Below, piece by piece: positions 15,162 to 59,617 of a stretch of DNA of 64,000 nt (position 1 is its first letter; each line of letters begins with the position of its first letter). The translations under genes were made by a program, and so were the position numbers. The DNA comes from Candidatus Latescibacterota bacterium. Lineage in GTDB: Bacteria; Latescibacterota; UBA2968; UBA8231. The DNA lies in assembly GCA_965242865.1 (NCBI GenBank), contig CBDETK010000013.1:352001-416000 (forward strand), given 5' to 3'. The notes beneath the pieces were generated by a model, which was not told the origin of the DNA, did not search any database, and was given only the letters and a program-made list of their open reading frames with translations.

Positions 15162-17291
15162 CTAAGGCAACTTGGTCGTCTTTTTCGCTTCTATCTGTCC
15201 TTCGATTTCGACGCGATAGATATACACGCCCGCGGCCACCGCCTTGCCTGTCTCGTCGCGGCCATCCCATACAAACCGATGGCTGCCCGCCTGCAACGGC
15301 CTGTCCCACACCTGCCGCACCCGACGACCCAACACGTCGTACACGGTCAGCGACACGCTCGTCGCGTCCGTTGCCAAATCAAGCGGCAACACCACCGCCG
15401 GATTGAACGGATTGGGATAGCTGTCGCCCAGCCGATACTGCGCCGGGCGCGCTGCCGCCGACGTCAGCACCGCTGTTAGCGGATCGCTCAGCGAACTCTT
15501 GAGCAGATGCACACCGCCCAAGACCGGATCCAACACCACCAAATCGACAGCGCCGTCGCCATCGACATCGCCCGGCAGCACCTGTACCCCATCGCCCTCT
15601 AAGCGATGTGTTTCCACGTCTTCTGTTGGGTTCACGCCCCCGCCCCATTCGACGAACACCCCGAAGCCCGACGCACGATCGCCGCCGACAAACGCCCAGT
15701 CCTCAACCCCATCGGCATTTAAGTCGCCCACCACCACCGGCGAGCGCAAAAACAGCCGCTCATCATACAACACCTCCGTCTCTACAACGCCGCTGGGGCG
15801 GCTGCTCCGCACAACCAGCCCCTTGCGTTGTTCAGCACCGTCGTAGCGCAGGGCCGTCAGCAAGTCCACTTGCCCATCGCTATCAAAATCGCCCGTGCCC
15901 AAAAAAGTATATGAAGCGAGGCTCTGGTCGGCCCCGAGGGCAAATAGGGAGCCTGCCGCAAACTCACCTCCCAACCGAGACACAACCCAAGTATGGGCTT
16001 GGCCAACGATGGGCCCCCACAGCACGTCCAGCCTCCCATCGCCCGTAAGGTCGCCCACCTGAATGGGCACATGATCCTCTGGGAGAGCCGCCACCCGCGA
16101 AGCGGTCCATACGCCACCCGCGACATCCCAGACCTCGAAATAGGACTCGCCAGCCACGGAATAACCTTCTGCATTGTAGTTGACCTCAGAAACGTCCGTG
16201 AAAAAGAGTTCGACATCGCCATCGCCGTCCCAATCCGCTAAGTTTACGAACTCGCGGTTAGGTATCTCCGTCATCACCTCGATCGGGCGGTCCGGCCCCA
16301 TAGACCAAACCGCGACCCGACTGTTTATAGCCAACGCGAGCTCGTCGGTGCCATCGCCGGTTATATCGCCTAGATCCACCTTGAGATAAGCAAGCTCTCC
16401 CACCTGTTCAGTCCATGCGGTTTCAAAGACCCCCTCGCCGTCGTTGAGGGCCATGACCCAACCAGAGGAGGTGTACAAGTCCCGGGGAGGGAGGTGTTGC
16501 CAAACAGAGAAAAGGTCTAAATCGCCATCGCGGTCCAAGTCCGTCAATACACCCGCCCGCTCGTTTCCGAGAACCAACCGGTCGCCTGTGCCCGGCACCA
16601 TGGGATGGAAAGCGGGCGGCTCGAAGTGCCGACCCCTCTCAAAGCGAAAATAGTCGGCTTGGGGTGGCGGTAATTCTCCTTGTAGAATCTCCTCAACGCC
16701 GGTCAACTCGATCCAGTCGATCGCCAAGCGGCCCACCTTTTGCTCGGCCGCACGCGGCACTCCGATTGCGCCCTGATCCAAGTAAAAACTCAGCCGAATA
16801 TCCCGTACCGCACCGGCCCATATAATCTCATCGGGGTCCACAATGGGAATTTCTACTTCTTGCCACTCGGTCGTGTAAACAAAGTCGCGGGGGCCGGGGA
16901 GCAAAAAGCGTCGTTTAGGCCATTCAGGATCGTGCCCCGGCCGCGTGAGGTTGTGTTCATTGGTCCATTTGAAGTTGAAAAAACCGAATGTAGGGCTGTG
17001 ATGGACGGTGCGGAACCGCACTCGCACCCGGTCGAACAGAGCCGAATCGTAGTCCAAGGCGGGAGAAATCACTTCGACGCTCGGATTGTGGTCATCCGAG
17101 CGAAAGGTCTCGATCATCCACGCGCCATCTGCAATCACCCCAGACAACAGGTGGAACTCATGAAAGCCACCCGATGAGACGTCCTTTTTAGCAGCCCATC
17201 CTTGCGCCGTCTCTCCGTCGAAATCCCAAGTGACTGCCGCGGCCGGGCGACTCAACAGCACCATCCCTGCACAAATAGAAACGAGCAACAC
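15162..17291 (-). CDS. Secreted FG-GAP/VCBS repeat protein with C-terminal FlgD-Ig domain (paralogue 1, most divergent)
   Basis: Signal peptide, N-terminal jelly-roll-like WDFDG..QGW...IDWIEL domain, multiple DxDGDGxxDL repeats, YPNPFNP...KKTTKLP. Confidence 0.85.
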   Translation of the reverse strand: MLLVSICAGMVLLSRPAAAVTWDFDGETAQGWAAKKDVSSGGFHEFHLLSGVIADGAWMIETFRSDDHNPSVEVISPALDYDSALFDRVRVRFRTVHHSPTFGFFNFKWTNEHNLTRPGHDPEWPKRRFLLPGPRDFVYTTEWQEVEIPIVDPDEIIWAGAVRDIRLSFYLDQGAIGVPRAAEQKVGRLAIDWIELTGVEEILQGELPPPQADYFRFERGRHFEPPAFHPMVPGTGDRLVLGNERAGVLTDLDRDGDLDLFSVWQHLPPRDLYTSSGWVMALNDGEGVFETAWTEQVGELAYLKVDLGDITGDGTDELALAINSRVAVWSMGPDRPIEVMTEIPNREFVNLADWDGDGDVELFFTDVSEVNYNAEGYSVAGESYFEVWDVAGGVWTASRVAALPEDHVPIQVGDLTGDGRLDVLWGPIVGQAHTWVVSRLGGEFAAGSLFALGADQSLASYTFLGTGDFDSDGQVDLLTALRYDGAEQRKGLVVRSSRPSGVVETEVLYDERLFLRSPVVVGDLNADGVEDWAFVGGDRASGFGVFVEWGGGVNPTEDVETHRLEGDGVQVLPGDVDGDGAVDLVVLDPVLGGVHLLKSSLSDPLTAVLTSAAARPAQYRLGDSYPNPFNPAVVLPLDLATDATSVSLTVYDVLGRRVRQVWDRPLQAGSHRFVWDGRDETGKAVAAGVYIYRVEIEGQIEAKKTTKLP

Positions 17292-17376
17292 GACAGCACC
17301 TCCTATTCGTAACTTGAATTGATGGTGAAACCGGAATAAGGCGCGATGAGTTCTCCCGGCAACATCGACAAGCGAC

Positions 17377-59231: not shown

Positions 59232-59282
59232 TTGGGCTGTCGCGCCGCCAAGATAGGTGATCAAGGGCTGGAGTACGCCTTG

Positions 59283-59617
59283 GCCGGATTAAGGCCCCCG
59301 CCCCACTCGACAAACACCCCAAAGCCTGACGCCCGGTCGCCGCCGATGAACACCCAATCGTCCGCGCCATCGGCATTCAAGTCGCGCACCACTACTGGCG
59401 ACCGCCACCTCAGAGGACGACCACGCGCCGTTCTCTACATCCCAGACCTCTAACGTGCTGCCCGCAAACGTGGTCTTTCCGACAAATAGCTCGACCGCGC
59501 CGTCGCCATCCCAATCGGCCAAGTCCCGCAGAAAGCGATCCGGGAGTTCCGCGAGCACCTCGATTTGGAGTTCCGGCCCCACCGACCAAACCGCGGTCGC
59601 TAATTCACTCGTTCTAG
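59283..59617 (-). pseudogene. Internally deleted fragment of a clade C FG-GAP gene
   Basis: Two segments matching about 43579-43697 and 44110-44330 joined at a GGCGA microhomology near 59397. Confidence 0.8.

Follow-up and report, generated by a model that had tools for sequence, protein, structure and literature searches.

A 64,000-nucleotide stretch of a Candidatus Latescibacterota genome (the window; contig CBDETK010000013.1, abbreviated C13, positions 352001-416000) contains an array of seven genes for small cysteine-rich proteins and thirteen genes for large FG-GAP propeller proteins. All of them lie on the minus strand between window positions 15162 and 59617. Comparative and structural analyses suggest that these genes might encode a repertoire of two-subunit surface complexes exported by the type IX secretion system (T9SS), and that the array might be one locus of a lineage-restricted secretion system. 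This is the reading we favour, tentatively and with slightly less than even confidence. Structure prediction and comparative genomics support a pairing in which each exported, disulfide-rich protein has a cognate binding partner. The system is multi-gene, extends beyond the window, and is restricted to a lineage in Candidatus Latescibacterota. It is real, conserved, and undescribed in the sources searched, where no family, structure or paper with this architecture was found; the preliminary description of this DNA had likewise recognised none. The full-text literature search returned no paper on the architecture or on a cargo paired with a small partner. PMC4736985 concerns, in passages on Cys-rich proteins, large proteins of Peregrinibacteria, which are unrelated.

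The seven small open reading frames (ORFs) encode 91-96 aa each. Their alignment bears out the reported near-invariant 44-aa leader and the cores with 8-10 Cys: residues 1-44 are almost invariant, and the 41 invariant columns lie mainly in this leader. The cores are 47-52 aa long and divergent, with 8 Cys in six of the seven genes and 10 Cys in the gene at 19633. The leader consists of an n-region (EF..SxSG...P.RQG), a 19-aa hydrophobic core, and an AxA motif, and contains invariant Gly13 and Gly20. Judged from its residues, the combination of hydrophobic core and AxA is typical of Sec targeting. No Pfam, NCBIfam, PADLOC or PDB match was found for the small proteins (PADLOC, 0 families for 7 proteins). 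A profile built from the seven matched 177 of 214 candidates at E<=0.01, all of them unnamed or "hypothetical". In an exhaustive profile search of 1.84 billion representatives, just 66 clusters matched, with lengths of 35-283 aa. The titled records all belong to Candidatus Latescibacterota/Latescibacteria metagenome-assembled genomes (26 loci), and one matched cluster carries the source label Gemmatimonadetes. Across the phylum set, the small family occurs in 26 of 168 genomes, including 20 of the 30 others of the same genus and a few in other genera.

Selection on the small genes was estimated as the ratio of nonsynonymous to synonymous differences (pN/pS) in 22 equal-length pairs, which are not independent. 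The leader showed a pN/pS of 0.23 at a pS of 0.39 between genomes, a value not near 1 and indicative of purifying selection. The core changes faster (0.63), with its Cys residues retained. The low leader ratio indicates that the small ORFs are real coding genes. The cores sort into about five types that recur between genomes. When the core of the 45469-45759 gene was compared with contigs from the runs of three studies, two pieces covering the whole core showed 0 differences, and a third piece covering about half of it showed 2. A hypervariable library of the conotoxin or RiPP (ribosomally synthesized and post-translationally modified peptide) kind, as first proposed, is not what these conserved and (near-)identical cores resemble.

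Structure prediction of the 37648 protein gave a confident strand-helix-strand-strand fold for the core, with a predicted local distance difference test score (pLDDT) of about 88-93, and a poorly modelled leader. Foldseek found no structural relative of the core; its top rows, which were non-significant, were laterosporulin bacteriocins. The ESM Atlas returned only unnamed clusters (0.78-0.83), which served as a lead only and not as evidence. In relatives and in a sister locus of the same genome, fusion proteins of 200-340 aa join the same leader to 1-3 tandem cores and a T9SS sorting domain (TIGR04183, 31.8 bits in one fusion protein; cut-off 23). The confident fold, the conserved core types and the tandem fusions to a T9SS domain point to a folded, exported mini-domain and argue against a RiPP precursor. 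On this comparative evidence, the small proteins are a new family rather than a hypervariable library, and their proposed disulfide-rich, exported nature is supported.

The large paralogs (n=13, with 13 copies per repeat family) are 701-773 aa long and share 52-89% pairwise identity. Ten were scanned, and all ten contain FG-GAP_3/FG-GAP repeats and a C-terminal FlgD_ig match above the Pfam cut-offs; the three others (48557, 54097 and 56289) were aligned only and have 74-89% identity to scanned copies. The C-terminal domain described at first as FlgD-Ig does score as such, and is better read, by sequence, as a T9SS type A sorting domain. TIGR04183 matched both large proteins scanned for it (29.5 and 25.2 bits; cut-off 23), and the C-terminal ~90 aa of the large proteins also match the C-terminal domain of PorU. 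The search for T9SS machinery covered PorU and SprA, and both were found in the genome: PorU with 624 bits (cut-off 420), and SprA_N with 87.5 bits (frame of 2150 aa). More than 50 other places or gene ends in the genome carry the C-terminal domain of the large proteins. All 13 large proteins begin with a short hydrophobic N-terminus ending in ..PA.A before IRWEFDDGTTQGW, which by inspection looks like an ordinary signal peptide. In the AlphaFold model of the 43098 protein (pLDDT 78; predicted TM-score, pTM, 0.76), the N-terminal part forms a beta-sandwich, which is followed by a propeller and, beyond a disordered linker, by an Ig-like tail. CRTAC1 is the best PDB match to this model (E=3.8e-10), and PorZ, Bap1, PL11 lyases and integrin alphaV were also matched. 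The repeats and the model match both assign the large proteins to FG-GAP/integrin-alpha-like propellers.

The complex of a small protein with its neighbour was predicted for one cognate pair, the 45469 core and the 43098 protein, both entered as alignments. The interaction prediction score from aligned errors (ipSAE) was 0.85, 0.01 and 0.70 over three runs, with a median of 0.70, and the best of 3 controls scored 0.00. The partner had a pLDDT of 52 or more, and 4% or more of the contacts were shared between runs. The ipSAE mark is reached by 58 of 80 solved complexes and by 2 of 110 mismatched pairs, counts that hold only roughly for predictions with own alignments. In the best run, 46 of the 52 core residues contact the partner and the core is almost wholly buried. 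The predicted cleft is formed by beta-sandwich residues 37-45, 72-74, 108-133 and 172-179 and by propeller loops within 242-511. Within the family, the 64 partner residues at this interface vary most (paralog identity 0.30 on average, versus 0.66 elsewhere), and the difference persists among coil residues only (0.29 versus 0.65, p=3e-9).

Gene order and co-divergence also point to a cognate partner next door, as had been proposed. In the window, every small gene is followed on the same strand by 1-3 large paralogs, as first described (2, 3, 1, 2, 1, 2 and 2 copies). The linkage holds in other genomes: over the window and the loci of relatives, which were not deduplicated, a full-length large gene lies within 500 bp downstream of 68 of 79 small genes. 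The 11 exceptions comprise four small genes with a further small gene behind them (at two places, each present twice in the set), four that precede what scores only as a large-gene fragment, mostly at locus ends, and three with no small- or large-family gene downstream in the locus. Among 49 unique pairs, core distance correlates with partner distance in non-interface columns (rho 0.69) and in interface columns (rho 0.62).

The proposed sigma-54 control is supported by five identical promoters, an activator gene within the cluster, and rpoN in the genome (Sigma54_DBD, 201 bits). The 16-mer TGGCACGCAATTTGCT, with GG at -24 and GC at -12, occurs about 155 nt upstream of five of the seven small genes, which are the first small gene of each transcription unit. 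These five are exact matches, at 59017-59032, 53583-53598, 45899-45914, 38078-38093 and 27643-27658 (minus strand; cassettes A to E). Allowing one mismatch added two matches, both within coding regions, and shuffled sequence yields 2.0 at this stringency. No separate promoter precedes the small genes at 19633 and 24494, which sit inside a single long operon. About 380 nt before the ATG are near-invariant across all five units, and contain three tandem 17-bp sites, an AT-rich stretch, an inverted repeat, the -24/-12 element, and a 5' untranslated region (UTR) of about 130 nt. The 17-bp site has 15 copies in the window against 0.01 expected, one triple per promoter at 21-bp spacing; these putative activator-binding upstream sites lie at 59154-59212, 53719-53777, 46035-46093, 38214-38272 and 27779-27837 (minus strand; A to E). 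The 6-Mb genome holds 19 copies, all at promoters of the small/large gene family. The four outside the window are three before a large paralog (C13:493584-493642) and one before a lone small gene (C13:2271763-2271779). Confined genome-wide to these promoters, the site marks one regulon. The outside triple precedes the third large paralog of a locus that has no small gene. Three ORFs of 102-150 aa on the minus strand (45943-46251, 53627-53935 and 58924-59376) overlap this conserved promoter DNA, have no family, and were dropped as genes.

The activator (38344-41571, minus strand) consists of Reg_prop, Y_Y_Y, AAA+ and HTH_8 domains. Its Sigma54_activat match scores 233.8 bits and the GSFTGA loop is visible in the sequence, so that a bacterial enhancer-binding protein with an AAA+ sigma-54 interaction domain accompanies the promoters. 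The protein is likely to bind the 17-bp sites. No receiver domain and no hydrophobic or membrane segment was found in it; its propeller sensor is therefore placed in the cytoplasm, and a periplasmic sensor was rejected. In other genomes, TGGCAC-N5-TTGC occurs 141-166 nt upstream of 14 of 46 small genes; most of the remainder lie inside operons or encode fusions. The two internal small genes of the window retain the final ~90 nt of the common 5'UTR in front of them (19909-19998 and 24779-24868, minus strand), right after the upstream stop codon. This retained piece could be a translation or processing signal, or simply a duplication boundary. The common 5'UTR folds no better than shuffles (z=0.30) and the whole-window Rfam scan gave no family there, so no RNA element is claimed.

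Five transcription units (A-E) were read from the gene order on the minus strand. Unit A starts with a 93-aa small protein with an 8-Cys core (58596-58877), followed by two large paralogs known by alignment (714 aa, 56289-58433; 717 aa, 54097-56250). Unit B contains a 92-aa small protein with 8 Cys (53165-53443) and three large paralogs of 741 aa (50793-53018, Pfam scan), 713 aa (48557-50698, aligned only) and 701 aa (46413-48518, Pfam scan). Unit C encodes the 96-aa, 8-Cys small protein used for complex prediction (45469-45759), its 741-aa partner (counted from ATG) with Sec signal peptide, beta-sandwich, propeller and C-terminal domain (43098-45323; Pfam/NCBIfam scan and model), a 445-aa DUF4159 protein with an N-terminal membrane anchor (41593-42930), and the activator. 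Unit D begins with the 96-aa, 8-Cys small protein whose fold was modelled and whose core is of the commonest type (37648-37938). It continues with two large paralogs (35260-37482 and 32986-35190; Pfam scan and alignment), a 196-aa membrane-anchored protein without a family (32349-32939), a TPR protein (31618-32544), a 502-aa part of a GT1-like glycosyltransferase (30098-31606), a 328-aa transglutaminase-like core protein (29136-30122), and a GT2 glycosyltransferase (27972-29108), the last four assigned by family scan. Unit E alternates a 93-aa small protein with 8 Cys (27222-27503) and one large paralog (24870-27059), an internal 94-aa small protein with 8 Cys (24494-24778) and two large paralogs (22196-24334 and 20001-22151), and an internal 91-aa small protein with 10 Cys (19633-19908) and two more (17377-19545 and 15162-17291). 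All five large proteins of this unit were identified by Pfam scan, and the last is the most divergent by alignment (52-59% to the others).

The GT1-like and transglutaminase-like ORFs of unit D are separate and overlap by 25 nt (29136-31606). A relative (L047:11397-13880) and the sister locus (C13:3168573-3171065) carry them as a single protein of 827-830 aa, and the split in the window may be either real or a frameshift or assembly error. Directly downstream of the last cassette, a signalling cluster occupies 7447-14985 on the minus strand, with two FHA-domain proteins, a MotA/ExbB-family gene (13854-14633), a PP2C phosphatase, a Ser/Thr kinase with ankyrin repeats, and a second Ser/Thr kinase. 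A tRNA gene (4703-4775, minus strand) is the sole Rfam match in the whole window.

Genome-wide, the system comprises about 33 large genes, plus about 13 that encode small or fusion proteins. The second, divergent locus, referred to here as the sister locus (C13:3150073-3205137, plus strand), contains three small genes whose leader has diverged, along with two fusion genes and some 16 large paralogs (about 32% identity). Its accessory genes include a separate Reg_prop sigma-54 activator, 4-5 DUF4159 genes, GT1-like/transglutaminase, GT2 and TPR genes, and an A24-family peptidase and a CPYC redoxin immediately before the first small gene. Three large genes make up a third locus (C13:488964-495999), and one lone large gene and one lone small gene were also found. 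A compact, one-strand version of the system is the 15-gene operon of a relative (locus L047). In gene order, it encodes the activator, two small proteins, a large one, two fusions, the 196-aa membrane protein, the A24 peptidase, two ResA/MauD-like thioredoxins, TPR, GT1-like/transglutaminase fusion (827 aa), GT2, DUF4159, and a discoidin-T9SS protein. The MauD match of its thioredoxin is weak (44.9 bits; cut-off 188.6). A 551-aa F5/8 type C (discoidin) protein with the same T9SS tail stands at the edge of many loci (L047:16587-18242; C13:497842-499497).

Accessory homologues recur in the loci of relatives: the activator 27 times (besides the window), DUF4159 26, the 196-aa protein 23, GT2 14, TPR 13, the A24 peptidase about 13, GT1-like 12, and transglutaminase-like 11. 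The 196-aa protein and the N-terminal half of the DUF4159 protein have no NCBIfam or Pfam family. The N-terminus of the DUF4159 proteins contains a conserved basic stretch, a membrane helix with S-x-x-x-H, and a Pro/Arg-rich linker, which may resemble the N-terminus of TonB. Four runs labelled as sponge metagenomes contain 0.34-0.58 of the sampled words, and contigs from two of these runs match the window with 0-2 differences over several hundred bases.

The A24 peptidase of the sister locus (C13:3152636-3153772) is the only Peptidase_A24 match in the genome. Its sequence contains D-x5-IP and PGDAKL stretches, which may resemble the two catalytic-Asp motifs of the A24 family. Among the 31 genomes of the genus, including the source, 18 carry the small family together with the peptidase, 3 carry the small family alone, and 10 lack both; the peptidase never occurs alone. 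Being related, these genomes are not independent samples. Elsewhere in the class, in other genera and another family, 1-3 leader-bearing Cys-rich genes have a peptidase homologue 0.2-1.5 kb away, which lies beside thioredoxins. The n-region EF..SxSG, the hydrophobic core and AxA are all kept at the class level. One locus from a distant genus (L050), the sole such locus with long flanks, has no propeller gene within 13 kb. Distant loci of this kind indicate that the propeller was not the oldest partner. The oldest module seems to be peptidase, thioredoxins and small protein, which the T9SS propellers seem to have joined, and then expanded, in the source genus. Genes for an ATPase and platform of the type II secretion/type IV pilus kind (T2SSE/T2SSF) were found only on a 41-kb contig (C1:26570-28906); no pilus/T2SS ATPase or platform gene was found on the 5.6-Mb chromosome contig or in the system loci. 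The origin of the C1 genes is uncertain because the contamination estimate of the bin is 6.8%. In the 196-aa protein, the N-terminus is strongly conserved and places a Gly immediately ahead of a hydrophobic stretch. This protein always adjoins the A24 peptidase in relatives, which makes it an alternative candidate substrate.

These analyses suggest the following mechanism for the two-subunit surface complexes. The cytoplasmic Reg_prop/Y_Y_Y activator would bind the three 17-bp sites and fire the five near-identical sigma-54 promoters. The small protein, encoded first in the operon, would be carried across the inner membrane by its family-specific leader, which is probably also a substrate of the A24-family aspartic peptidase of the system. 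The 47-52-aa core is predicted to fold as a disulfide-rich beta-alpha-beta-beta mini-domain, probably assisted by the ResA/MauD-like thiol-disulfide oxidoreductases. Its predicted docking site is a cleft in the product of the neighbouring gene, between beta-sandwich and FG-GAP propeller, where it would be nearly all buried. Since the partner bears a T9SS type A C-terminal domain, the pair may be exported or surface-anchored by T9SS, with the small subunit riding along. Cassette duplication and divergence would produce a repertoire of two-subunit complexes, most plausibly for adhesion or recognition.

Several observations weigh against this proposal. One of the three complex runs scored 0.01, and a complex prediction indicates compatibility, not binding. 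The covariation specific to the interface is weak (partial rho 0.12, p=0.03, over the 49 unique pairs), so the correlation between cores and partners could reflect co-duplication alone; the data are co-inheritance, not proven co-evolution. At least 16 partners have no small gene of their own, including second and third genes of cassettes, the three partners of locus 3, and the lone copy. The distant-genus locus without a propeller counts against it as well. To our knowledge, there is no precedent for a subunit without a sorting domain hitch-hiking through T9SS, and this step would be new.

The same observations may be read in other ways. The cores might be exported bioactive peptides (antimicrobial, signalling or host-directed; defensin- or bacteriocin-like), with the propeller as a carrier, cage or immunity protein until release outside the cell, which is close to the first proposal without its RiPP chemistry. 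The constant leader with fast cores (0.63 against 0.23), the contact of 46 of 52 core residues with the partner, as caged cargo would show, and the non-significant laterosporulin rows are in keeping with this, and the fusions, which put cores directly on a T9SS domain, indicate that cores can go outside by themselves. We consider it rather improbable: no bacteriocin exporter or immunity-type gene was found among the region genes scanned, by PADLOC, or in the compact operon of the relative; the core types are conserved between genomes and (near-)identical between samples, unlike an arms-race library; and 1-3 secreted 700-aa proteins per peptide would be a heavy immunity cost. A further possibility is that the propellers are enzymes or lectins (for example, polysaccharide-lyase-like) and the small protein blocks the cleft in the periplasm until export, like a separately encoded pro-peptide. 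The partner has PL11 rhamnogalacturonan lyases and the matrix protein Bap1 among its structural neighbours, the core is predicted to fill a cleft over the propeller face, and glycosyltransferase genes are conserved in the system. The cleft residues, however, are the least conserved of the protein, unlike a catalytic site, no catalytic motif was identified, and many partners lack a small gene, which together make such a trans-acting plug or inhibitor quite improbable. A RiPP precursor family, with a leader that guides modifying enzymes and a heavily modified core, is very hard to sustain. It would explain the constant leader and variable core, and a transglutaminase-like gene (cysteine-protease fold) and glycosyltransferases are present in the cluster. 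Pfam/NCBIfam scans of the non-paralog region genes and of the 15-gene operon found no maturase, whether radical-SAM, YcaO, lanthionine-type or other, and neither the scanned region genes nor that operon included an ABC exporter able to cleave leaders (C39-ABC). The leader has a hydrophobic core and AxA, the core is predicted as a confident fold, and tandem cores are fused to a T9SS domain.

The A24 link might point to a class III (prepilin-like) signal, in which the peptidase cuts after the Gly of SxSG (or of RQG). The small protein would then be pilin-like or membrane-anchored with a Cys-rich head, or the released N-terminal peptide would be a cytoplasmic signal, and the propellers would be a later addition. 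The only Peptidase_A24 match of the genome sits in the sister locus, and homologues occur in at least 13 related loci. All 18 peptidase genomes of the genus have the small family, and the 10 without the small family all lack the peptidase; a distance of 0.2-1.5 kb separates the peptidase from a leader-bearing small gene in distant genera. EF..SxSG is conserved at the class level, far beyond the needs of Sec targeting. We regard this as unlikely, since the leader conserves just as well an AxA site for signal peptidase I behind its hydrophobic core, a T9SS fusion requires a soluble periplasmic intermediate, and the hydrophobic stretch was not modelled as a helix. Moreover, pilus ATPase and platform genes are absent from the 5.6-Mb chromosome contig and found only on the 41-kb one, and the N-terminally anchored 196-aa protein, always beside the peptidase, could be the real substrate. 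The peptidase and the surface complexes could also be joined in a single reading, which we see as possible but somewhat unlikely. Here, a new sorting and assembly system would have an N-terminal signal cut by a dedicated A24 intramembrane peptidase; the marked small domains would be loaded into the hypervariable clefts of T9SS-cargo propellers and exported by hitch-hiking. The products would be combinatorial, sigma-54-switched surface receptors in a sponge-associated symbiont, and the cytoplasmic Reg_prop activator could receive feedback from the leader fragment once it is released.

If the two-subunit reading is true, the system would add a new small-protein family and a new type of conserved leader to bacterial secretion biology. 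It would be the first case known to us of T9SS delivering a subunit without a sorting domain by means of a cognate cargo. It would also assign a function to about 100 kb (about 1.7%) of the genome of an uncultured Latescibacterota member, near-identical DNA of which is present in sponge-metagenome runs. The variable pocket and the variable mini-domain would be a natural, compact, disulfide-stabilised binder/receptor pair, which is directly testable. The A24 link raises the question of non-pilin substrates of A24 peptidases in bacteria.

Comparison with known systems showed partial likenesses. Laterosporulin, a defensin-like bacteriocin, shares a length of about 50 aa, several disulfides, and the top Foldseek rows; the structural similarity is not significant. 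The quinoprotein amine dehydrogenases (methylamine dehydrogenase MauA/MauB; QHNDH gamma/beta) set a beta-propeller subunit against a small Cys-rich one, which is heavily cross-linked and has an unusual leader, and their operon includes a thioredoxin-like accessory protein. The Cys-rich small subunit, the propeller and the thioredoxin-like gene resemble the system described here, in which the MauD match is weak. However, no conserved Trp pair for cofactor formation is present here (the 58596 core has no Trp), and scans of the region and of L047 found no heme, no radical-SAM or flavoprotein maturase, and no MauG-, QhpD- or QhpG-type genes. The presence of about 33 paralogous propellers with T9SS domains also makes a metabolic enzyme unlikely. 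Like type IV prepilins and other class III substrates, the small proteins are linked in the genome to a dedicated A24 peptidase and have a conserved n-region whose final Gly precedes a hydrophobic stretch. They differ in lacking the full pattern of Gly at -1, hydrophobic helix, Glu at +5 and assembly ATPase: position +5 is Trp, AxA follows the hydrophobic core, and no assembly ATPase is encoded in the loci. Their globular portion, a Cys-rich domain of 50 aa, can also occur in fusion with a T9SS domain. The propellers of integrin alpha, CRTAC1 and Bap1 are similar in their FG-GAP repeats, which score above the Pfam cut-offs, and in structure. The large proteins here have, in addition, an N-terminal beta-sandwich, a T9SS domain, and an encoded small partner that is predicted to be buried between sandwich and propeller; disintegrin-type small Cys-rich ligands of integrins offer an analogy. 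The T9SS type A cargo proteins of Bacteroidota and relatives in the FCB group share the Sec signal peptide, the functional domains, and the C-terminal Ig-like TIGR04183 domain, in a genome with PorU and SprA. In the Latescibacterota system, by contrast, the cargo genes are led by a small gene for a partner that has no sorting domain and its own leader family, and they are arranged in sigma-54-driven operons of a system with its own A24 peptidase and thioredoxins.

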